Source: Pirellulales bacterium (lineage in GTDB: Bacteria > Planctomycetota > Planctomycetia > Pirellulales > UBA1268). From it: a stretch of DNA of 64,000 nt. The stretch covers positions 5,169 through 69,168 of the forward strand of contig JBBAVS010000003.1 in the NCBI GenBank assembly GCA_040397585.1, read 5' to 3'. The notes under the pieces were generated by a model. It worked only from the letters and a program-made list of their open reading frames with translations. It had not been told where the DNA came from and searched no databases. This document shows positions 54,246 to 64,000 of the stretch, piece by piece. Position 1 is the stretch's first letter, and each line of letters begins with the position of its first letter. The position numbers were made by a program, and so were the translations under genes.

Positions 54246-55265
54246 TCAGCGATTCGAGTCGTCGACCGGCATGCCATCGCCGCGGTCGGCGAGCCGGCGC
54301 AGGGTTTCGAGATCCGTGGCGGGCGCCACGGGCCGCACGGACCCGTCGCAGAACACGAACATCACGGCGCCGCCGGCGTGGGCACTGCCGAATACCCGGA
54401 ACCGTTCCTGGCCCACGATCGACGCGTCTGCCGGACCATCGGCGAGTCGATTGGTTTCTTCGCTGGCGGTCTTCAGGCCCGTGCTGTCGCTGTAGGTGAA
54501 ATCCTTGCCCGCCGCACGCATCGAGTAGAAGCCATTGTCTCCGTTGTAGATCGAGGCATCGAAGCCCGGGTCTCCAGCCTTGCCCGCGGGGATGAACTTC
54601 TCGCCCGCGAGCAAGGTCTTGCTCAGCCCGTCGGAGATGTTCTTGGGCTGGATGTCGCCGCGCGGCTGGTCGGTGCTCGCCTTGAAACCGCTGCTGGTGA
54701 TGATCGTGCCCCGATACCTGTCCGGAAAATACTTCGATCCACTCTCCTCGCTGTACACGGGGCCGATACTCCCCGCATAGTCGCCGAGCAGGCCGGGGTA
54801 AAAACCGCTGCCGCCCGGCATCATGTCGAGCGACAGGAACGCGGTGCGGTCGCGGGAGGGGCAGAAATACGCGGGTACCCGATACTCGCGGGCCGCGCGG
54901 TTCTGGTCGTCGTAATACTCCAGGTTGAGCTTCCAGAGCGCGAGCCCCGCCGCGTCCTCCATGTAGGGCAGGATCAGTCCGAACCAGGTCACGCGCCGGT
55001 CGCGCCAGCGGCCGGGCGGCAGCACCTTCTTCGCCGACATGTGGCCGTGCACGGCCAGGCCCATCTGCTTGAGGTTGTTGGCACACTGCATCCGGCGGCC
55101 GGCCTCCCGGGCCGACTGCACGGCCGGCAGGAGCAGGCCGATGAGCGTGGCGATGATCGCGATCACCACCAAGAGCTCAACGAGCGTGAAACCATGGCGA
55201 CGGCCGGGGCATGAACCCGAGACAACCGAACCAAACGCTCGCGGCGACGGCCGGAACGGTGGCAT
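54246..55265 (-). CDS. DUF1559 protein with prepilin-type N-terminal cleavage/methylation domain
   Basis: [51 protein letters not shown] is the canonical type IV pilin-like N-terminus + DUF1559 head. The C-terminal [18 protein letters not shown] block is also typical. Confidence 0.9.
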
Positions 55266-55375
55266 GCGAACGCCCCCCCTGTGGAGCATGAGGATTGCCT
55301 CACGAGACCTGCGTCACGCTGTGGATCACGATCCGAGCAGTGCGGCGGCGAGATCCTGCGGATCACCGCCGGGCG

Positions 55376-55831
55376 TCACTTCGCCTCGAGTGCGAAATCG
55401 GCCTTGTCAGTTCCCGCCGCCGGCACGTCGAACGTGAGGGTGCTCTTGTAGTTGTAGCGCGGAGGCACCCTCTCCCGCTCGTGGGTGCCATTTGCCGAAC
55501 GCTTGGCGGTTTCCGCGTTGAAAGAACAGATCTTCACTCGATGCTTGCCCACGACCGCCCCCGGCTCGCCGCGAATGGTGGCCAGGGTAAAGCGACCGTC
55601 GGTTCCGGTTCGGGCTGTGGACCCCGGGCCCGCGTTCACCTCGGAACCGACGACGATCGGCTGGAAGCTCACGATGCCGCCGGCGAGCGGCTGGCCATCC
55701 AGCGACACGATTCCCGAAACAGGCACGAGCTTGAAGGGCGACGGACTGCACCCCGCGCACGCGACGGCGATCGTCAACGCCGTCACGCCCAGATGGCAAG
55801 CTCGCGATAAGCCGATGGGGATGATCCTCAT
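55376..55831 (-). CDS. Small lipoprotein, carboxypeptidase-regulatory-like beta-sandwich type (partner of the DUF1559 gene)
   Basis: Its ATG overlaps the upstream DUF1559 stop as ATGA (55828-55831). Lipobox LTIAVACAGCSP. VSGIVSLDGQPLAGGIVSFQP...TGTDGRFTL...GKHRVKI is the pattern of CarboxypepD_reg-like domains. Confidence 0.75.
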   Translation of the reverse strand: MRIIPIGLSRACHLGVTALTIAVACAGCSPSPFKLVPVSGIVSLDGQPLAGGIVSFQPIVVGSEVNAGPGSTARTGTDGRFTLATIRGEPGAVVGKHRVKICSFNAETAKRSANGTHERERVPPRYNYKSTLTFDVPAAGTDKADFALEAK

Positions 55832-56904
55832 TGCAGCGACTGGGACTCGCCCCCTTGGATCGTGGCAGCCGCACTGAACACGGTCATGTCGATATTCGGA
55901 TCGACGATCCCGACAGACCCGTCGCAGCGGGCGAACACGATCCCGCCCCCCGAGTGGAGGCTTCCCCAGGCCCGCTTGCAGGTGTGCTCCCCGAGGCCAC
56001 CGATCTCCAGGCACCGGTTGTAGTCCGGCAGCAACGTGCGGCTCTCGGGAAACGCGCTCGATTGGTTGTACGAGGTGTATGGATACGACCAGAGCGTCCG
56101 CCGTTCCGGGGTATTCGACGTGTGGAACTCGCCCACCAAGAGGGTCTTGGATACGCCATCGGTCACCTGCCGGATGCGAACGGGCAGCAGGGCTCGCTGC
56201 CCTCCGGAACGACTCGTGGAAATGTTGTGCATCGCCCCACGCCATGCCGTCGGCAGGGTTGCCTCCGACAGATCGACGTGCGTCGGGTCATCCCAGTATT
56301 CGCTCCCACCCTGACCGAGCGAATAGCCCGACACGGCCCGGTATGACCCAGGGGCCCATCGATACGAGGCGCCAGGGCCGGGCTGGCTCGGTTGCTGCAA
56401 CACCGTGGTGTTGACGTCGCTGGGGCACACGAAGACCGGAAGCAACGCCTGCTGCACGATCTGCGCGGCCTTGAGTTCCGCCATGGTGGTCCCACCAGAA
56501 AGCGGCGCGGGCACGCCCCCCGTCCCCGCGGAGATGCTGGCGTTCTTCCAGCTGTCGAACAGTGTTCCCTGCTCGATGTACGGCAGAACATCGACAGACC
56601 ACGTGGTGTAGTACGGCCCGTTCAAGCTTGCGGTCCTGGTCGTCGAGCCGGCGGGAAATGCCCGCTTCCCCGATTCGTAGGAGACGACGGACAAGGCGAC
56701 TTGCTTCATGTTGCCCATGCACTGCGTCCGCCGGCCCGCCTCACGGGCACTCTGCACGGCCGGGAGCAGCAGGCCGATGAGCGTGGCAATGATCGCGATC
56801 ACGACCAGGAGTTCGACAAGCGTGAAGCCCTGCACTGACGGCCGCTTCGGCGCAGGCGAGCGACCCGTGCGCCAACCGTGCGGCATGCGGAAACGCGTAG
56901 TCAT
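55828..56904 (-). CDS. DUF1559 protein with prepilin-type N-terminal cleavage/methylation domain
   Basis: [53 protein letters not shown], and C-terminal HSGGGIVFARCDGSV. The first 29 residues of the mature N-terminus ([29 protein letters not shown]) are identical to those of 54246..55265. Confidence 0.9.
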   Translation of the reverse strand: MTTRFRMPHGWRTGRSPAPKRPSVQGFTLVELLVVIAIIATLIGLLLPAVQSAREAGRRTQCMGNMKQVALSVVSYESGKRAFPAGSTTRTASLNGPYYTTWSVDVLPYIEQGTLFDSWKNASISAGTGGVPAPLSGGTTMAELKAAQIVQQALLPVFVCPSDVNTTVLQQPSQPGPGASYRWAPGSYRAVSGYSLGQGGSEYWDDPTHVDLSEATLPTAWRGAMHNISTSRSGGQRALLPVRIRQVTDGVSKTLLVGEFHTSNTPERRTLWSYPYTSYNQSSAFPESRTLLPDYNRCLEIGGLGEHTCKRAWGSLHSGGGIVFARCDGSVGIVDPNIDMTVFSAAATIQGGESQSLQ

Positions 56905-56973
56905 GACAGACCCCCCGTAAGGCTGATCACTCGCGGGAATTTGATCCCCGCACTCCCCTGCTTTGATCCTCAA

Positions 56974-57003
56974 ATTCTACGGTGCTTATCCAGTCCGCTG
57001 CAA
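56974..57003 (-). promoter_or_regulatory. Sigma70-like promoter candidate (TTGCAG-N18-TAGAAT) upstream of the DUF1559 cluster
   Basis: The minus strand reads TTGCAGcggactggataagcaccgTAGAAT inside a locally AT-richer patch, ~70 nt upstream of the ATG at 56904. This is a pattern match only. Confidence 0.3.
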
Positions 57004-57222
57004 GGGGGCGTCAACCACATATCACTTACAAATTTTTGCGCAACTATCGCACTGGCTGTCGAAGTCGACCAACCCTGCCAAGGCCGAGGTTTTTCATCTG
57101 AGGACGTCCGTGGCAACCGCCGCCAGACCGCCTCCTTGACCGCTTCCTGACCGGCACGGCTCGTCACGGCGGACCAGCGTGCGAGGACCGCAGCGGCCGG
57201 CCGGGGGCGGTGGATGGTGGCC

Positions 57223-58011
57223 TCAGCGGCGGCTGATCACCAGGTCGAGGCAGCGGAGCCAGAAGTCGGCGTATTTCTTCCAGAACACGAGGTTGCAGCC
57301 CCAATGCGGCGCCGGGTCGGAGGAGTAGCAGAGCACCGTGCCCCGGCCTTCCTGGGCCGCGACCACCAGCGGGTCGCCCGTCTCCTTGATCGTGAGCAGG
57401 GCTTCGCGGCCCGGCTTGAGCCGCACCTGGTTGTAGCCCAGCAGGGGCGGGCAGTCGGTGAGATCGAGCCCCGCGAAGGCCTTCTTGCCCGCCGCGGTCG
57501 CCACCGGCTGATAGCCCTCGGTGCTCTCCACGAGATCCTCGTGGTCGAGGCACTCCACGGGCATCACCTCGCGGAGCAGGGTCCGCCCCCAGCCCCCCTT
57601 GCCCTGCTCGCCGGTAAACGAATACCAGCCCCCGAGCAGCATGAGTCCTTTCCCTTGCCGCACCGCGTCGATCGTGAGTCGGACGCGGTCGGGAAAGGTG
57701 AGCACGCCGTGGCCGAACTTCGCCCGGTCGAAGAAGCTCGGCGCGAGCTGGAAGAGCTTTCCCTCGACGTCGCTGAAGATGATCACGTCGTACTCTGCCA
57801 GGATCCGCTCGTAGGCCCCGGGACCGAGCTTGTAGAACTCCCAGGACGGCACGCTCGTCACCTGGTGGACGCCGGTCGATTCGACCGCCTCCTTGAGCCA
57901 GGTGCCGTAGTTGAAGACGTCGAGCCCCTTCATCGCGTTCTGGAAGGGGGACTCGGCGAACCAGGGGCCGGTCAGCACGGCCCAGTCGCCGACGTAATAC
58001 ACCTTCGCCAT
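57223..58011 (-). CDS. Class-I glutamine-amidotransferase-like (GATase1_like / former DUF1355-type) cytoplasmic protein
   Basis: MAKVYYVGDWAVLTGPWF..., YDVIIFSDVEG..., LMLLGGWYSFTGEQGKGGW... and CYSSDPAPHWG match the conserved pattern of putative-glutamine-amidotransferase family proteins. GGAGGA lies 7 nt before the ATG at 58011. The track start at 58014 is a GTG. Confidence 0.75.
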   Translation of the reverse strand: MAKVYYVGDWAVLTGPWFAESPFQNAMKGLDVFNYGTWLKEAVESTGVHQVTSVPSWEFYKLGPGAYERILAEYDVIIFSDVEGKLFQLAPSFFDRAKFGHGVLTFPDRVRLTIDAVRQGKGLMLLGGWYSFTGEQGKGGWGRTLLREVMPVECLDHEDLVESTEGYQPVATAAGKKAFAGLDLTDCPPLLGYNQVRLKPGREALLTIKETGDPLVVAAQEGRGTVLCYSSDPAPHWGCNLVFWKKYADFWLRCLDLVISRR

Positions 58012-58136
58012 CACGCTCCTCCGCAGCCGCGGATTTGAAAGACCGGCCTCGATCGGGGTAGCCTAGCACGGTCGGTGGGAGCGTCGAGAGCGGAAGCGGC
58101 CGGTCGACGCGGCGGACAACCCTCGTGGAGAAGCCC

Positions 58137-59381
58137 ATGCGAACCCTGCCATCGGTCTGCTGCGGAGTCGTGGCGGCGCTCCTGGTCGCGCTGCCGGTGA
58201 TGGCCCGCGAACGCGCGGTGGCTCCGGCGGCCGATCGCACGGTGGTTGCCCGCTGCGGCGCCGGCTTCCTCGAGGAGGTCGGCGGCCATGCCGTCCTGCA
58301 CGTCGCCGGCACGCCCTACGAGATGGGCTTCCAGCACGGCCGGCTGCTCCGGGAGCACGTGCACGCCGTGGTCCGGTTCCTGCTCGACGAGAAGGCCAAG
58401 GAGATGACGGCCGAGGTGGCGGGCATGGAACTGATGTCGCCGCAGCTCATCATCCAGGGCATCCAGGCGGTGCAGCAGCCTTTCCTGCCCGACTGGTACG
58501 ACGAGGAACTCCGCGGGCTGGCCGACGGCTCGGGCGTGCCGCTGGCCGACATCCGCACGGCCAACTTCATCCCGGAGCTCTTCCACTGCTCCGGATTTGC
58601 GGTCTCGGGGGCGGCCACGGGCAACGAGCACACCTACCACGGCCGTGTGCTCGACTACGGCTGCGACTGGCGGCTCCAGGAGCACCCGGTCGTGATCGTG
58701 GCCAGGCCCGCCGGCAAGATCCCGTTCGTCAACGTCGGCTACGCCGGCTTCATCGGCAGCGTGACCGGGATGAACGCGGAACGGATCAGTGCGGGGGAGA
58801 TGGGGGGCGCGGGGCTGGGCAAGTGGCTGGGCGTGCCGATGGCGGTGCTGATGCGGGAGGTGCTCCAGGGAGCTGACACGCTCGCCGAGGCGGTGGCGGT
58901 GTTCCGCGACAACCCGCGAACCTGCGAATACTACTACGTGCTCGCCGACGGCAAGACCGGCGAGGCCGTGGCCCTTGAGGCCGGCGCCGACGAGTTTCGG
59001 GCGGTGGAGATGGGCGCCACGTGCGAGCGGCTGCCGCATGCCGTCGAGGACGCGGTGCTGCTCTCGGCGGGGGATCGCTACGAGCTGCTCGTGAAGCGGG
59101 TGCGGGAGGCCCATGGCCGGATCGACGCCGAGGCGGCACTGGCGCTGATGGATCGGCCGGTGAGCATGACGTCGAACCTGCACAACGTGCTCTTCGAGAC
59201 GTCGACCGGGCGGTTCTGGGTGGCGCATGCCTCTCCCGACGGCAAGCCTGCGGCCGAGCAGGCTTACCTGGGCTTCGACCTGCGGGCGCTGCTCGCGCAC
59301 GAGCCCGGCCCAGACGCGAAGGAACTGCCGGGACCGGAACCGGCGGCCGTTGGCAAGACGGTGGCCGCCGGCGCGGACTGA
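58137..59381 (+). CDS. Secreted peptidase C45 family protein (acyl-CoA:6-APA acyltransferase-like Ntn hydrolase)
   Basis: Signal peptide MRTLPSVCCGVVAALLVALPVMARE. LHVAGTPYEMGFQHGRLLREHV is the C45 N-terminal block. The candidate nucleophile is in LFHCSGFAVSGAAT, then YHGRVLDYG. The track start at 58125 is a GTG, so the ATG at 58137 is preferred. Confidence 0.8.
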   Translation: MRTLPSVCCGVVAALLVALPVMARERAVAPAADRTVVARCGAGFLEEVGGHAVLHVAGTPYEMGFQHGRLLREHVHAVVRFLLDEKAKEMTAEVAGMELMSPQLIIQGIQAVQQPFLPDWYDEELRGLADGSGVPLADIRTANFIPELFHCSGFAVSGAATGNEHTYHGRVLDYGCDWRLQEHPVVIVARPAGKIPFVNVGYAGFIGSVTGMNAERISAGEMGGAGLGKWLGVPMAVLMREVLQGADTLAEAVAVFRDNPRTCEYYYVLADGKTGEAVALEAGADEFRAVEMGATCERLPHAVEDAVLLSAGDRYELLVKRVREAHGRIDAEAALALMDRPVSMTSNLHNVLFETSTGRFWVAHASPDGKPAAEQAYLGFDLRALLAHEPGPDAKELPGPEPAAVGKTVAAGAD

Positions 59382-59415
59382 GCGACCGGCACACGTGCCT
59401 CGAGAGGACCGGCGG

Positions 59416-61446
59416 ATGACGATCGAAGCGGCCGGCCTGGAGGCATCCAGCGGCTGGTCTGCCGGGGTCATCGAGGGCTTCTACGGGCCGCCTTGGACGC
59501 GGGCCGAGCGGGAGCAACTCCTCGACTGGATGGCGCGGTTCGGCCTGACGACCTATCTGCACGCGCCGAAGGACGACCCCCACCATCGCGCCGTCTGGCG
59601 GCGGCCGCTGCCGCCGGCGGCCGTCGCCGACCTGGCCGACCTCGTCGCCGCCTGCCGCCGCCGGGGCATCGCCTTCGTGTGGGCAATCCATCCCGGCCTC
59701 GACATCCGGTATTCGTCGGCCGCCGATCTCGCGGCCTTGATCGCCCGGCTGGAGCAGGTCGCTGCTGCGGGCGGCCGGGACTTCGCCCTCCTGTTCGACG
59801 ACGTGCCGGGAACACTCGAGCCCGAAGACGCCCGGGCCTTCGCGAGCCTGGCCGCCGCGCAGGCGCACGTCGCCAACCGCGTGCACGAGTGGCTCCGCGG
59901 CCGCGATGCCGCCGGGCGGATGCTCATCTGCCCGACGGCGTATTGCACCCGAATGGCCGACGCGGGCCTCGGCGGCGCCGGCTACCTGCGGGAGCTCGGC
60001 GAGCGGCTCGCGCCGGGCATCGACGTGCTCTGGACCGGCCCTGAGATCATCTCCCGGGAGATCACGGTCGACCATCTGACCGGCGTGGCGAGCCTCCTGA
60101 AGCGGCCCCCCGTGCTCTGGGACAATCTGTTCGCCAACGACTACGACATCGGCCGCTTCTTCGCCGGCCCGTTCGCCGGCCGGCCCACCGCCATCCGCGA
60201 CCACGTTCGCGGCGTGCTCGTGAATCCCAACAACGAACTGCCCCTCAACTTCGGGCCGCTGCACACGCTCGGGGCCTTCATGCGGTCCGGCCCCGACTTC
60301 GACCCGCGGGCGGCCCACCTGGAGGCCATGCGGGACTGGCTGCCGGCCTTCACGCTGCTGCCTCGCGGCGCCGAGCCCCGCCCCGCCATCAATGAGGACG
60401 AGGTCATTCTCCTGGGCGACTGCTTCTACCTGCCGCACGAGTACGGCGCCGGGGCCCGGCAGCTGCTCGAGACCGCCGGCCGGTTGCTCGCCGCGCCGGG
60501 CCTGCCCGGACAGGACGCCGACCTGCGCCGCACGGCGAGCGGGCTGATCGCGTTGACCAATCGCCTCGCCGACCTGCAGGACCGCGGCCTGGCGCACGCC
60601 ATGGCCCGGCGGCTGTGGGCGCTCCGCGACGAACTCACGCTCCTGCTCGTGCGGCTCGACGCCGCGGCGGGACGACCCCGCCCCGACGACGACCATCTGC
60701 CGGGCACGTTTCGCGGCGGCCTCGTCGCCGACCTCCGGCGGCTGCTCCCCTTCGATCCGGGACCGTCGCTGGCGGGCGTCCGCGAGCTCCGGCCGCGGCC
60801 GGCGATCCTGCGGCCGGCCCGGGGCGACGACCTGGCGGGCTGCGCGCGAGTGTGCCTGGAGACCGGCGATCACGGCGCGGACGGCACGCCCTTCTACACC
60901 GACGACCCCGACGCGCTGGCGCGGATCTACGTCGCCCCCTATCTCGCGCTCGAGCCGGGGTTGGCCTTCGTGCTCGAGGACGAGCAGGGGGTCTGCGGCT
61001 ACGTGCTCGCGGCGGTCGACTCGCGGTCGTTTTACGCCCGCTACGACTCCGAACTGCGGCCGCAGCTCGTGGCCGCGTTTCCAGAGCCGACCGGCGACCC
61101 GGCCGGGTGGACCCGCGCCCAGCAGGTGCATCGCTCCTACCACCATCCCGACTACCACTGCCCCGAACCCGCCGCCGAGTATCCCGCCCACGCGCACATC
61201 GATCTCGCCCCCCGGGCCCAGGGGCTGGGCTACGGCGGGCCGATGATGCGGCACATCCTCGCGGAACTCGCCCGCCGCGGGGCGCCGGGCGTGCACCTCG
61301 GCGTGAGCGGAAAGAACCCGCGGGCTCTGGCCTTCTACGCCCGGCTCGGCTTCGTGGAGCTGGAGCGGCGCGGGCCGCCCGACGACCAGACCGTCTATCT
61401 CGGGCTGAAGCTGGCGGCCGCCCCGTCGGGAGCCACGCGGCCATGA
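59416..61446 (+). CDS. Cytoplasmic GH84 beta-N-acetylglucosaminidase (O-GlcNAcase-like) fused to a C-terminal GNAT acetyltransferase domain
   Basis: GH84 blocks are present: GVIEGFYGPPWTRAEREQLLDWM, TYLHAPKDDPHHRAVWR, the catalytic pair in FALLFDDVPG (DD at 59797-59802), VLWDNLFANDYD and GVLVNPNNELPLNF. The C-terminal ~200 aa (about 60800-61400) has the GNAT motif A RAQGLGYGG (61213-61236) and NPRALAFYARLGFVEL. No signal peptide is visible. Confidence 0.88.
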   Translation: MTIEAAGLEASSGWSAGVIEGFYGPPWTRAEREQLLDWMARFGLTTYLHAPKDDPHHRAVWRRPLPPAAVADLADLVAACRRRGIAFVWAIHPGLDIRYSSAADLAALIARLEQVAAAGGRDFALLFDDVPGTLEPEDARAFASLAAAQAHVANRVHEWLRGRDAAGRMLICPTAYCTRMADAGLGGAGYLRELGERLAPGIDVLWTGPEIISREITVDHLTGVASLLKRPPVLWDNLFANDYDIGRFFAGPFAGRPTAIRDHVRGVLVNPNNELPLNFGPLHTLGAFMRSGPDFDPRAAHLEAMRDWLPAFTLLPRGAEPRPAINEDEVILLGDCFYLPHEYGAGARQLLETAGRLLAAPGLPGQDADLRRTASGLIALTNRLADLQDRGLAHAMARRLWALRDELTLLLVRLDAAAGRPRPDDDHLPGTFRGGLVADLRRLLPFDPGPSLAGVRELRPRPAILRPARGDDLAGCARVCLETGDHGADGTPFYTDDPDALARIYVAPYLALEPGLAFVLEDEQGVCGYVLAAVDSRSFYARYDSELRPQLVAAFPEPTGDPAGWTRAQQVHRSYHHPDYHCPEPAAEYPAHAHIDLAPRAQGLGYGGPMMRHILAELARRGAPGVHLGVSGKNPRALAFYARLGFVELERRGPPDDQTVYLGLKLAAAPSGATRP

Positions 61447-62732
61447 GCGGCGGAGACGAACTCGTCGCCGGGTCGCCCCGCCGGCTCGCCCAGCGGCTGG
61501 CCAACTTCGCGGAGCGACCGATCATGGCCTCGATCCGCTCGGGCGTGGCGGCGGTGGTGCCGCTGACGATCGTCGGCGGCCTGTTCATGCTCCTGGCCAA
61601 CCCGCCGCTGCCGGTTCTCGAGCGGCTGCTCGCCCCCTGGGCCGACCTGCTGCGGATTCCGGTCACCGCCACGTTCGGCATCCTGGGCCTGTTCGTCTGC
61701 CTCGCCGTGGCCCACGAGCTCGGTGGCCGCCGCGGTCAGGATCCGCTCTCGAGCACGATCCTCGCCGGCGCGAGTTTTTTGCTGCTCGCCGTCGACCCGG
61801 CGACCGGCCGGCTCGCCCCGGAGCCGCTCGGCTCGCAGGGGATCTTGGTGGCGATCCTCGTCGGCGTCGTGGCGGTGGAGGTGCAGGCCCTCCTCGCCCG
61901 TCGCGGCCTGGTGATCAAGATGCCGGCGGGCGTGCCCCGGATCATCTACGAGTCGTTCGCGGCGCTGGTGCCGCTGACGGTGCTCGTGACCGGCTTCTGG
62001 TGCCTGCGGTTCGTGCTGGGCATCGACCTGGCGGCCGTGGTCGAGCGGATCTTCCGGCCGCTCGTGTTCGCCCTCGACACGCTGCCCGGGATCGTGACGT
62101 TCGCGTTTCTGGTCACGCTGCTCTGGTCGGTGGGCATCAACGGCGACAACGCCCTCGACCCGATCGTGGGCCCGTTCTTCCTGCAGTACCTGGCCGCGAA
62201 CGTGGAGGCCTGGGAGCGGGGCGCGCCGCCGCCCCATCCGACGGCCCTCGGGTTCTTCACCACCTTCGTCAACGTCGGCGGCACCGGCGCGACGCTCGCG
62301 CTGGCACTGGTGCTGCTCAACTCCCGCAATCCGGTCCATCGCCGCGTCAGCCGGCTCTCGCTGCCCGCGCAGGTGTTCCAGATCAATGAGCCGTTGTTCT
62401 TCGGCCTGCCGGTCGTGCTCAATCCGATCCTGATGCTGCCCTACGTGATCAACGCGGTGCTCCTGGCCGGCGCCACGTTCCTGCTGATGGAGTGGGGCCT
62501 CGTGGGCCGGCCGGTGGTCGGTATTCCCTGGACCACGCCGCCGATCGTCGGCCACTACCTCGCCACGGGAGGCGACTGGCGGGCCGCCGCGTGGGGCGGC
62601 GTGTCGATCCTCGTGGCGATGGCGGTCTACTGGCCCTTCGTCCGGCTCTGGGAGCGGCAGGGGGTCGGGCCGGACCCGGCAGCGGAGCCGTCGTCCGCCG
62701 GGTCGAAAACCCTGCCGCGGAGCCAGCCATGA
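61443..62732 (+). CDS. PTS EIIC-type permease (lactose/cellobiose/chitobiose family), stand-alone
   Basis: Its ATG overlaps the GH84 stop as ATGA. The profile is polytopic and hydrophobic. LANFAERPIMASIRSGVAAVVPLTIVGGLFMLLANPP and SVGINGDNALDPIVGPFFLQYLAANVEAWERG resemble ChbC/CelB-type EIIC. Confidence 0.8.
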   Translation: MSGGDELVAGSPRRLAQRLANFAERPIMASIRSGVAAVVPLTIVGGLFMLLANPPLPVLERLLAPWADLLRIPVTATFGILGLFVCLAVAHELGGRRGQDPLSSTILAGASFLLLAVDPATGRLAPEPLGSQGILVAILVGVVAVEVQALLARRGLVIKMPAGVPRIIYESFAALVPLTVLVTGFWCLRFVLGIDLAAVVERIFRPLVFALDTLPGIVTFAFLVTLLWSVGINGDNALDPIVGPFFLQYLAANVEAWERGAPPPHPTALGFFTTFVNVGGTGATLALALVLLNSRNPVHRRVSRLSLPAQVFQINEPLFFGLPVVLNPILMLPYVINAVLLAGATFLLMEWGLVGRPVVGIPWTTPPIVGHYLATGGDWRAAAWGGVSILVAMAVYWPFVRLWERQGVGPDPAAEPSSAGSKTLPRSQP

Positions 62733-63793
62733 CGAGCATCCTCGCGACCGGCCACGAGTTCACCACGATCTTCGGCCGCAACCTCCTCGGCGAGATTCCC
62801 GCGATCGCCCGGCCGCCGTATCTGGTGGTCACGATGGCCGACCTCTGGGAGAAGTTCCGGCACCACTTCACCGGCGACCTGGCCGGGCCGTATTTCGTCC
62901 ACACGATCGACGGCGCCGAGCTGGCCGCCGAGCTGCCGGCGCTGCCCGCCTGCGGCTCGGTGGTGGGACTGGGCGGCGGCCAGGCGATCGACGTGGCGAA
63001 GTTCATCGCCTGGTCGCGAAGGCTGCCGCTGTTCCAGATTCCGACGTCGCTGTCGGTCGACGCGGCCTACGGCCACCGGGCCGGGCTGCGCTACGGGGGC
63101 TACGTGAAGTACGTCGGCTTCGCCGTGCCCGAGGCGGTGTATGTCGATTTCGACGTGATCGCGGCCGCGCCGCCCCACCTCAACCGCAGCGGGATCTGCG
63201 AGGTGCTCTGCTTCCATACGGCCCACGCCGACTGGCGGCTGGCCCGCGACCGCGGCCGCACGCCCGCGAAGTGGCCCTACGACCAGCGGCTCGTCGACGA
63301 GGCCCAGGGCGTGATGCGGGGGGTGCTGGAGCGGCTCGACGACATCCACGCCGTGAACGAGGCCGGCATCCGCACGCTGGCGACGGCGCAGCGCTGGGCC
63401 GGGGCCTCCTTCCACAACGCCGGCTGGAACCCCTGCCATATCGAGGCCACCGACCACTTCGTCTTCTATGCGTTGGAGTATTTCACCGGCCGGAAGTTCC
63501 TCCACGGGCAGCCGGTCTGCCTGGGGATCGTGGTCGGCTCGATGCTGCACGACGACCGGGCCGACGAGATGCTGGCGGCGATCCGCCGCGTGGGCGTGGA
63601 CATCCGGCCCGAGGCGATGGGCATCGGCTGGGACGATGTCGCCTTCGCCCTCACGCGGATCCGGTCGTTCGTCCGCGAGGCTGGGTTGTGGTATTCGATC
63701 CTCGACGAGGTGGAGATCACGCCCGCGTTCGTGGCCGCGCTGCGGGAGCGGATCACCGCGGCGTACGGCCCGTGGACGGAGCCATCGGCATGA
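62729..63793 (+). CDS. Iron-containing alcohol dehydrogenase superfamily protein, sn-glycerol-1-phosphate dehydrogenase (AraM/EgsA)-like
   Basis: Its ATG overlaps the EIIC stop as ATGA. NAD-binding VVGLGGGQAIDVAKFIA. IPTSLSVDAAYGHRAGL. DFDVIAAAPPHLNRSGICEVL...HADWRLA matches the G1PDH/AraM-type pattern (PTxxSxDG ... GxGD ... DWxLA) with substitutions. Confidence 0.75.
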   Translation: MTSILATGHEFTTIFGRNLLGEIPAIARPPYLVVTMADLWEKFRHHFTGDLAGPYFVHTIDGAELAAELPALPACGSVVGLGGGQAIDVAKFIAWSRRLPLFQIPTSLSVDAAYGHRAGLRYGGYVKYVGFAVPEAVYVDFDVIAAAPPHLNRSGICEVLCFHTAHADWRLARDRGRTPAKWPYDQRLVDEAQGVMRGVLERLDDIHAVNEAGIRTLATAQRWAGASFHNAGWNPCHIEATDHFVFYALEYFTGRKFLHGQPVCLGIVVGSMLHDDRADEMLAAIRRVGVDIRPEAMGIGWDDVAFALTRIRSFVREAGLWYSILDEVEITPAFVAALRERITAAYGPWTEPSA

Positions 63794-63872
63794 CGCGCTG
63801 CCCGACGCCCTTCGCATGATCGCGAAGGGCGCCGAGGCGCCGCCCCACCTGGCAGGCCGGGCTGCGGGAGCC

Positions 63873-64000
63873 CTACCAGGTGATCCGGATCGGCGTGACG
63901 AAACGGCGGACGGTGGTCATCGGCACCTCGTCGGTGTCGAGGGCGCGACGCTGGTAGAGCGTGTACAGGTCGCCGTCGTGGCTCGGCGTGACCTCGATCA
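63873..64000 (-). CDS. 3' end of an unidentified minus-strand gene running off the right edge
   Basis: The reverse frame is open to the window edge (...IEVTPSHDGDLYTLYQRRALDTDEVPMTTVRRFVTPIRITW-stop at 63873-63875), with mostly G/C at third positions. It is too short to classify. Confidence 0.3.
   Translation of the reverse strand, partial: IEVTPSHDGDLYTLYQRRALDTDEVPMTTVRRFVTPIRITW

Follow-up and report, generated by a model that had tools for sequence, protein, structure and literature searches.

A conserved linkage between an O-GlcNAcase-type GH84–GNAT protein and a stand-alone EIIC permease in a planctomycete operon

Introduction

What the GNAT-fold domain of O-GlcNAcase (OGA) does has been under debate ever since it was first named a histone acetyltransferase. 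Papers published between 2013 and 2025 call the eukaryotic domain a pseudo-enzyme, and find neither a role nor an acceptor for the bacterial OgOGA/OgpAT pair (PMC3814719, PMC12494797). The stretch of DNA studied here, 64,000 nucleotides of contig JBBAVS010000003.1 from a Pirellulales bacterium (the window), encodes a protein in which an OGA-like GH84 hydrolase is fused to a GNAT domain (g2), followed directly by an EIIC (g3) of the kind known from the sugar phosphotransferase system (PTS). A gene for a hydrolase of the C45 family (g1) precedes this pair and a dehydrogenase gene (g4) follows it. Why would a relative of human OGA, complete with acetyltransferase domain, be encoded in one operon with a sugar permease?

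A prediction made from the letters of the window (the original prediction) had treated all four genes as one functional unit, serving a salvage or remodelling route for a glycopeptide or oligosaccharide that contains N-acetylglucosamine (GlcNAc). Its four family calls were all confirmed by profile hidden Markov model annotation. The conserved core consists of an OGA-like GH84 with stalk, an OGA-type GNAT and a ChbC-like EIIC, and it is found in Planctomycetota and Verrucomicrobiota.

Results

The g2 protein resembles O-GlcNAcase from end to end

Profile searches place g2 in both the NAGidase family (PF07555; E = 6e-76, 256 bits against a cut-off of 25) and the GNAT family (PF00583; 7e-9). Its top match among solved structures is full-length human OGA (hOGA), with an E-value of 7e-103. 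The catalytic domains share 41% identity over 280 columns, and a second aligned stretch, g2 residues 324-663, spans both the stalk and the human pseudo-histone acetyltransferase (pHAT) domain; isolated OGA stalk chains (5uhk_B) are matched at 2e-4. The alignment shows that g2 keeps the equivalents of hOGA K98, D174/D175, Y219, W278, N280 and D285, and that its motifs ALLFDDV, HAPKDD, CPTAYC and VLWDNLFANDYD line up with those of the human enzyme. Of these hOGA residues, D174/D175 are the catalytic pair and the other five belong to the -1 subsite.

The GNAT domain of g2 is 47% identical to O. granulosus OgpAT (3zj0; 1.1e-45) and 31% identical to human pHAT (2e-18 to hOGA). Rao et al. (2013) found that OgpAT binds acetyl-CoA and named His135, a P-loop with Gly144, Asn175 and Tyr182, while the human domain was described as a pseudo-enzyme that lacks the acetyl-CoA-binding residues (PMC3814719). 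In g2, H594, N634 and Y641 are the equivalents of His135 (the candidate base), Asn175 and Tyr182, and the P-loop R600-A-Q-G-L-G605-Y-G607 fits the pattern Q/R-x-x-G-x-G/A with the Gly144 equivalent kept. Across 54 non-identical bacterial GNAT homologues, 50 positions are conserved at a level of at least 95%. These include acetyl-CoA-binding and candidate catalytic positions, among them R600, G605, G607 and the equivalents of OgpAT His135, Gly144, Asn175 and Tyr182, that are replaced in the human protein. The g2 GNAT looks like a working enzyme because the residues replaced in the human domain are kept. As far as sequence can tell, g2 corresponds to eukaryotic OGA over its full length, with the hallmarks of an OGA-type GH84 and of a competent OgpAT-type GNAT; the original prediction missed both this and the histidine loss in the EIIC described below.

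GH84 and GNAT are encoded together, either fused as in g2 or as adjacent and overlapping genes. We compared 77 loci encoding g2 relatives, seeded from g2 and taken from one genome per species. Among these, the fused form is confined to the planctomycete clade of the window (L001-L006), and it is seen again in L082 and L083. Database proteins P0001-P0058 are also fused, with the exception of the truncated P0053; NCBI labels two of them Verrucomicrobiae (P0056) and Luteitalea (P0057). Other Planctomycetota and Verrucomicrobiota have split, adjacent and mostly overlapping genes, as in O. granulosus. A search of a plasmid collection with g2 gave matches to the catalytic domain only. JGI pipelines label g2 homologues 'protein O-GlcNAcase/histone acetyltransferase'.

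GH84 and GNAT genes are linked to an EIIC gene

An EIIC gene accompanies GH84 and GNAT in 38 of 50 loci, rising to 28 of 30 where at least 2.5 kb of flank is available on both sides. The 38 loci represent 20 EIIC clusters at 90% identity. EIIC is found downstream on the same strand in 25 cases, upstream on the same strand in 8 (Opitutaceae) and divergent in 5 (Pirellulales-like), and the existence of three placements indicates that the linkage has survived rearrangement. Where GH84 occurs without GNAT (WOR-3, Bdellovibrionia and others), just one locus in ten has an EIIC gene. The association also holds when approached from the permease: five reverse look-ups from EIIC homologues of 58-71% identity all led to a GH84 and a GNAT gene, several with 4-nt overlaps. 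The operon packing goes beyond chance, as orthologous loci with as little as ~57% identity repeat the 4-nt overlap between g2 and g3. Placement in an operon with a transporter points to small molecules, rather than proteins, as substrates of g2.

Amino-sugar genes join the module in several loci. The only two well-flanked loci without EIIC (L038 and L057) continue from GH84-GNAT into overlapping genes for a BadF/BadG-type ATPase and an SIS isomerase. GlcNAc kinase is the sole NCBIfam match of this ATPase, and a weak one; the presence of a kinase-like gene implies that free GlcNAc is produced. In L084 a NagA-like deacetylase gene (208.7 bits against a cut-off of 225.65) lies after EIIC, and tblastn detects a NagB gene in L004.

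These observations bear on whether g2 might instead serve protein O-GlcNAc cycling, removing O-GlcNAc from bacterial proteins and perhaps acetylating them, with the EIIC unrelated or regulatory. Such a role would fit the match of g2 to human OGA over its entire length, stalk included, the hOGA peptide-binding groove conserved in OgOGA (PMC3814719) and the bacterial OGA/OGT pair reported for Thermobaculum terrenum (PMC4683255). It would leave unexplained a permease linkage that is conserved, involves translational overlap and withstands rearrangement, as well as the NagA-like, kinase-like, SIS and aminotransferase genes that join the module. No OGT-like gene was noticed beside the module in loci with annotated neighbours, and reversible intracellular O-GlcNAc is undetected in bacteria according to Rao et al. 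(PMC3814719). We consider this alternative highly improbable.

The linked EIICs carry asparagine in place of histidine

The g3 protein matches the EIIC profile PF02378 (3e-40, 138.7 bits against a cut-off of 30.7) and scores above the threshold of the lactose/cellobiose IIC subfamily TIGR00410 (287.5 bits, cut-off 236). It falls below the equivalog cut-offs of TIGR00359 (287.5 against 434) and NF007634 (141.6 against 760). Similarity extends to the ChbC proteins of B. cereus (3qnq; 7e-58) and E. coli (29% identity by tblastn), and JGI pipelines label g3 homologues 'cellobiose-specific IIC'. Cao et al. are said to have found in 2011 that ChbC His250 and Glu334 flank the hydroxyl that receives the phosphate. 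At the His250 position g3 has Asn233 (GINGDN, 62133-62150), and it keeps the Glu334 equivalent (FQINE, 62376-62390). The same combination is seen in every linked EIIC, with asparagine in 41/41, in the motif G[IV]NGDN, and the Glu334 equivalent in 41/41; E. coli and B. cereus ChbC have GIHG at this point. Asparagine also occupies the position in 115 of the 120 best among 2,503 database matches. The EIIC homologues in the database are stand-alone IIC domains, and a large set of EIICs with neither the conserved histidine nor a IIB/IIA neighbour is thereby marked out.

With E. coli ChbA, ChbB, HPr, EI, Crr, NagA, NagB and NagE as tblastn queries, no match was obtained in the 64-kb window at E<=0.1. 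This upholds the earlier description of g3 as an orphan EIIC, with EIIA, EIIB, HPr and EI missing from the window along with NagA and NagB. NagC, a ROK protein, gave a single weak match (883-347, E 0.006). E. coli-type IIA, IIB, HPr and EI are equally missing, by tblastn, from the 77 loci, and no PTS_IIA or PTS_IIB Pfam domain was found among the called neighbours of the EIIC look-up loci. The locus thus departs from a chitobiose PTS in three respects, having no histidine, no IIB or IIA gene and scores below the equivalog level.

The EIIC subfamily with asparagine for histidine probably imports without the PTS, as judged from its residues and gene context. A conventional PTS, in which the EIIC would work with IIB, IIA, HPr and EI encoded elsewhere and g2 would process a 6-phosphorylated disaccharide, is unlikely in our view. 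It can draw on the TIGR00410 score of g3, on the retained Glu334 equivalent, on the few close EIIC homologues that retain histidine and on the room for partner genes in the remaining genome. It does not sit well with asparagine in all 41 linked EIICs, nor with more than 50 loci at none of which a IIA or IIB gene adjoins. Moreover, the hydrolases of characterised phospho-disaccharide routes belong to GH1 or GH4, as does E. coli ChbF, and not to GH84, and the kinase-like gene of the EIIC-less loci speaks for free GlcNAc.

A proposed route for imported amino-sugar glycosides

On balance, we read the conserved core as a module through which the cell uses an imported amino-sugar glycoside. The g3 EIIC would bring a β-linked disaccharide or small glycoside, terminated by GlcNAc or glucosamine (GlcN), into the cytoplasm in unphosphorylated form. 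With acetyl-CoA as donor, the GNAT domain of g2 would N-acetylate a free amine, most likely that of a non-reducing-end GlcN. The GH84 domain, which relies on the 2-acetamido group for substrate-assisted catalysis, could then release GlcNAc, and this would enter amino-sugar catabolism by way of an ATP-dependent kinase. In the lineage of the window the operon recruited two further genes: the C45 hydrolase may release the substrate or strip acyl groups from it outside the cell, and g4 may act by oxidising the aglycone or some other imported polyol. The sequences themselves show the gene order, the family memberships, the intact catalytic motifs, the conserved linkage and the exchange of histidine for asparagine; the mode of transport, the substrate, the order of reactions and the roles of g1, g4, the divergent gene g0 and the aminotransferase found in some modules are inferred from them. 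Candidate substrates are chitobiose, partly deacetylated chitin dimers, peptidoglycan disaccharides or another β-GlcNAc glycoside. The acceptor cavity of the GNAT homologue SsAT from S. sviceus is sized for a small polar molecule (PMC3919268). The specific order, in which acetylation precedes cleavage, is put forward tentatively.

A narrower version of the same scheme is muropeptide recycling. The EIIC would import GlcNAc or GlcN linked to N-acetylmuramic acid (GlcNAc-MurNAc or GlcN-MurNAc), the GNAT would re-acetylate it, GH84 would take the part of NagZ, and C45 would act outside on peptide or acyl portions. The logic is that by which glucosaminide N-acetyltransferase and NagZ recover non-acetylated peptidoglycan fragments (PMC4680927), the window's lineage has an exported amidohydrolase, and genes for MurR/RpiR, GH3 and D-aminoacylase adjoin an OGA-like gene in Deinococcus. 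Set against this, a MurQ-type etherase, an amidase and an anhydro-MurNAc kinase were seen in none of the loci, and the C45 gene is present in just four. We judge muropeptide recycling unlikely as the specific function, and it would in any case be a special case of the glycoside utilisation model rather than a true alternative.

Several points weigh against glycoside utilisation as set out above. Rather than chitobiose-type disaccharides, O-GlcNAc peptides and mucin-type linkages are the best-known substrates of GH84 enzymes, and the substrate of the putative pathway amounts to a list of candidates. A DegT aminotransferase and several unrelated dehydrogenases hint at chemistry outside the three steps of the model; the ties of g1 and g4 to the core are weak, and both may have a different purpose. 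As regards transport, the five of the 120 best EIIC homologues that retain histidine belong to the same kind of module, and together with the retained Glu334 they leave the loss of phosphoryl transfer unproven. Genes for EIIB, EIIA, EI and HPr could lie elsewhere in the genome. Finally, the comparison loci are nearly all contigs of metagenome-assembled genomes (MAGs), in which genes were called by a longest-open-reading-frame heuristic and tblastn, and some of them carry doubtful taxon labels.

The four-gene operon is a young extension of the core

The coordinates of the four same-strand genes (58137-63793) were confirmed by sequence reading, as were the 34-nt gap between g1 and g2 (59382-59415) and the ATGA start/stop overlaps of g2 with g3 (61443-61446) and of g3 with g4 (62729-62732). 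The divergent GATase1_like gene g0 was also confirmed, its distance to g1 being 122 nt instead of the 125 nt first given. We read the region, which has a G+C content of ~70-75%, as one transcription unit. In keeping with the original prediction, no internal signal that would break it was found: a promoter consensus scan of 57000-64000 gave 0 sites, and the three terminator-like sites in this range, all within coding sequence, are at chance level (1.8+/-1.4 in shuffles). The ATG of g1 at 58137 has a GGAG 8 nt upstream, with a GTG at 58125 as alternative start. Hydropathy analysis finds a single N-terminal hydrophobic segment resembling a signal peptide in g1, at least nine segments in g3 and none in g2, g4 or g0, which agrees with an exported g1, a membrane-embedded g3 and cytoplasmic g2 and g4.

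Table 1 Positions of the operon genes, the g2 domains, the flanking features and the genes that follow GH84-GNAT in two EIIC-less loci
Feature	Position	Strand	Description
g0	57223-58014	-	GATase1_like, 263 aa; divergent from g1
Candidate operon promoter	58035-58064	+	TTGAAA, 18 nt, TAGCCT; weak -35/-10 pair, below consensus scan
g1	58137-59381	+	Exported C45-family Ntn acyl-/amidohydrolase, 414 aa; ATG start, TGA stop
g2	59416-61446	+	GH84-stalk-GNAT, 676 aa; ATG start, TGA stop
g2 GH84 catalytic domain	59416-60375	+	Residues 1-320; PF07555; Asp-Asp pair 128-129 at 59797-59802
g2 OGA-type helical stalk	60376-60780	+	Approximately residues 321-455; aligns with human OGA stalk
g2 OGA-type GNAT domain	60781-61446	+	Residues 456-676; P-loop RAQGLGYG at 61213-61236; His592/His594 pair at 61189-61206
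g3	61443-62732	+	Stand-alone EIIC, lactose/cellobiose/chitobiose family, 429 aa
g4	62729-63793	+	Fe-ADH_2 / G1PDH-like, metal-dependent polyol dehydrogenase, cytoplasmic, 354 aa
ATPase/SIS genes, L038	8957-10578		
ATPase/SIS genes, L057	8924-10550		

In the intergenic region of g0 and g1 the blocks TTGAA, GGTAGCCTA and GCGTCG are invariant in an alignment of the window with L001, L002 and L003, and the weak TTGAAA-N18-TAGCCT pair may serve as the operon promoter. This region gave no alignment with L004, L005 or L011, where the intergenic regions have the motif GTTATA[GA]CA in common. Its inverted repeats are limited to an 8-nt pair and a short palindrome, and no Rfam family is matched between 56900 and 64000 at E<=0.1.

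The four-gene unit is young, as the C45 and the glycerol-1-phosphate dehydrogenase (G1PDH)-like gene accompany the core only in its closest relatives (g2 at least 81% identical). Conservation of the four genes as the one functional unit that the original prediction had proposed was rejected when g0-g4 were compared with the 77 loci by tblastn: beyond the window, g1 joins the module in L001-L003 alone, and g4 in these three and L044 alone. All four genes are together in L001-L003; beyond these closest relatives only the linkage of GH84 and GNAT to EIIC persists. The predicted route fares similarly. Import by the EIIC and cleavage inside by GH84 are supported by the 28 of 30 loci and the amino-sugar genes that join them, and trimming outside by the C45 protein is at best a lineage-specific addition.

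The g1 protein scores 166.7 bits against the NCBIfam model C45_proenzyme (NF040521, cut-off 85) and lies narrowly under the Pfam cut-off for PF03417 (22.5 against 23.2). Among PDB entries, NAAA, acid ceramidase and penicillin acyltransferase are distantly related to it. Cys151, in ELFH|CSGF, is a candidate for the nucleophile: the alignment with acid ceramidase pairs the ELFxx motif that precedes the nucleophile of that enzyme with ELFH-Cys151, and other alignments differ by a few residues. The acid ceramidase nucleophile would lie one residue off Cys151. In L004, L005 and L011 g0 faces g2 directly, without a C45 gene in between, and the C45 gene was therefore apparently inserted recently into the g0/g2 intergenic region. 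From this distribution g1 appears to be a lineage-specific addition to the module.

In the case of g4, the fold family is clear (Fe-ADH_2, PF13685; 5e-15, 56.3 bits, cut-off 28). The best NCBIfam match is glycerol-1-phosphate (G1P) dehydrogenase (NF002022; 1.7e-28), at 99.6 bits far under the equivalog cut-off of 413, and g4 is therefore termed G1PDH-like, not G1PDH. PDB matches range from 4.5e-18 to 1e-11, the best being annotated as glycerol dehydrogenase and G1P dehydrogenases. It likewise appears to be a lineage-specific addition: g4 accompanies the module in the window and L001-L003, and in L044 it is found without GH84 or EIIC. Elsewhere its relatives have an APC permease together with a HAD hydrolase as neighbours, or a sugar ABC transporter, or they stand alone.

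With this distribution, it is a serious possibility, though not the one we prefer, that g1 and g4 are passengers which share the transcript and not the pathway, leaving only g2 and g3 functionally coupled. The restriction of g1 to L001-L003 and of g4 to these and L044, the direct facing of g0 and g2 in L004, L005 and L011, and the g4 relatives of 67-75% identity that adjoin APC or ABC transporters in the company of no GH84 would all be expected of passengers. Less so would be the g3/g4 ATGA overlap, which is preserved in L001-L003, and the g4 homologue that directly follows an OGA-type GNAT gene in L044. In addition, unrelated dehydrogenases occupy the same end of the module in other lineages, HIBADH-like in Opitutaceae and Gfo/Idh/MocA in L086, hinting at a redox step.

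L044 (5236-8489) itself encodes a stand-alone OGA-type GNAT (74% to the g2 domain), followed by the homologue of g4 (84%) and then an amino-acid permease of the APC family, and it has neither GH84 nor EIIC. The Verrucomicrobia contig L091 has a g4 homologue with an APC permease and a HAD hydrolase. The 120 best matches of g4 (P0241-P0360) are 61-85% identical to it, come under source names that include Planctomycetota, Verrucomicrobia, Chloroflexi and Trueperaceae and are often encoded next to a transporter gene. Such high conservation suggests that this putative dehydrogenase family has a precise function.

The divergently transcribed g0 matches GATase1_like (PF07090; 1.7e-44) and is homologous to Salmonella STM1381 (PDB 3soz; 1.4e-32). 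It lies at or near the module in 10 loci, a linkage limited to the planctomycete clade with the fused gene.

Other neighbours of the module

A DegT/PseC/ArnB-like sugar aminotransferase is encoded within the module in 14 loci (for example L026 5735-6985 and L089 2268-3512). Its gene is placed in one of two ways: between GNAT and EIIC, where codons overlap, or immediately upstream of GH84, in divergent orientation to EIIC. A family of 530-730 aa with few Reg_prop repeats adjoins the module in 15 loci of Opitutaceae and Pirellulales-like bacteria (L084 6465-8060; L047 129-2312). Its conserved C-terminal ~500 aa gave no Pfam, NCBIfam or PDB match beyond these repeats. This family may act as an extracytoplasmic partner whose place the C45 protein takes in the lineage of the window.

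Genes for Gfo/Idh/MocA, AP_endonuc_2 and 3keto-disac_hyd proteins near the module in L084 and L086 led us to consider a 3-keto-glycoside or inositol route, which was left unsupported, as the genes are not consistently adjacent to the module. They are common in genomes of the Planctomycetes-Verrucomicrobia-Chlamydiae group. Upstream of the L038 module are genes for an ECF sigma factor and a Ser/Thr kinase.

The Deinococcus psychrotolerans plasmid NZ_CP034185.1 encodes at 345786-353969 (L081) a cytoplasmic OGA-like GH84 without GNAT. Its neighbours are an Opp/Dpp-type ABC importer, GH3, a MurR/RpiR regulator and D-aminoacylase, and by analogy this is possibly an import-and-cleave locus in another phylum.

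The nearest related contig is from a Planctomycetota MAG and has 92% protein identity. Some module-bearing MAGs (L003, L014, L017, L021, L025, L027 and L042) have implausible taxon labels, including Candidatus Kuenenia, Bifidobacteriaceae, Akkermansia muciniphila and Chromulinivoraceae; these odd names are probably binning or labelling errors. In the window, two DUF1559 (SBP_bac_10) paralogues with N-terminal prepilin-type methylation motifs lie upstream on the minus strand (54246-55289 and 55828-56973), with no visible link to the operon. Such pairs of the DUF1559/N-methyl protein family are associated with, and common in, Planctomycetota.

Discussion

All parts of the module belong to known families, and what is new is their conserved pairing with an EIIC. 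A literature search yielded no link of GH84 or OGA with EIIC, nor an account of these EIICs in Planctomycetota or Verrucomicrobiota. Through the conserved linkage the bacterial OGA/AT pair acquires a concrete physiological context, with a small number of testable substrates. A more far-reaching and at present doubtful view is that the OGA-type GNAT represents the human pseudo-HAT in an active, ancestor-like form, a glucosaminide N-acetyltransferase that re-acetylates imported, de-N-acetylated glycosides for cleavage by GH84, and that the eukaryotic OGA architecture derives from a bacterial amino-sugar salvage enzyme. The EIICs with asparagine would then be natural, phosphorylation-independent 'PTS' permeases, working without a PTS in Planctomycetota and Verrucomicrobiota.

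Comparison with known systems

The chitobiose PTS (E. coli ChbBCA with ChbF and ChbG; B. cereus ChbC) has an EIIC of the same family as g3, and the logic proposed here, import of a β-linked amino-sugar disaccharide followed by cytoplasmic cleavage, would be the same. The planctomycete locus differs in having no IIB or IIA gene in the window, asparagine for histidine and scores under the equivalog cut-offs. It encodes a GH84 enzyme in place of the GH4 phospho-glycosidase ChbF, and an acetyltransferase where E. coli has the deacetylase ChbG.

Among cytoplasmic bacterial GH84 enzymes related to eukaryotic OGA, that of Thermobaculum terrenum (5diy) is matched by g2 at 1.2e-52, over the catalytic part only. 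The T. terrenum enzyme is proposed to act on O-GlcNAc proteins together with OGT (PMC4683255).

Systems in which a GNAT is paired with or fused to a β-N-acetylglucosaminidase offer a closer parallel to the proposed acetylate-then-cleave order. Clostridium acetobutylicum has a glucosamine/glucosaminide N-acetyltransferase that acetylates the non-reducing-end GlcN before hydrolysis by NagZ (PMC4680927), and the GNAT region fused to GH3 in the fungal protein RmNag shows GlcN N-acetyltransferase activity (PMC4680927). These systems use GH3 where g2 has GH84, and their GNATs are of other subfamilies, so that the analogy is functional only.

The O. granulosus pair OgOGA and OgpAT (2xsa, 3zj0) has the same parts as g2, an OGA-like GH84 with stalk followed by an OGA-type GNAT that binds acetyl-CoA, and g2 matches OgOGA at 3.5e-89. 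Rao et al. described the function of this pair and the acceptor of OgpAT as unknown (PMC3814719), and a 2025 study used OgAT only as an acetyl-CoA-binding control (PMC12494797). Human pHAT cannot bind acetyl-CoA (PMC3814719, PMC12494797). Unlike the O. granulosus pair, g2 is fused into one protein of 676 aa, as in eukaryotes, and the planctomycete GH84-GNAT is tied to an EIIC permease.

Human OGA (5m7r, 9qen) shares with g2 the order of GH84, stalk and GNAT fold. In contrast to the human protein, g2 keeps acetyl-CoA-binding and candidate catalytic residues in its GNAT domain, has no long disordered insert and shares its operon with a transporter. If true, an acetylate-then-cleave function would explain the fusion of a hexosaminidase with an acetyltransferase in the line of descent leading to eukaryotic OGA, and a physiological role for the bacterial pair would offer an origin for the human pseudo-HAT domain.

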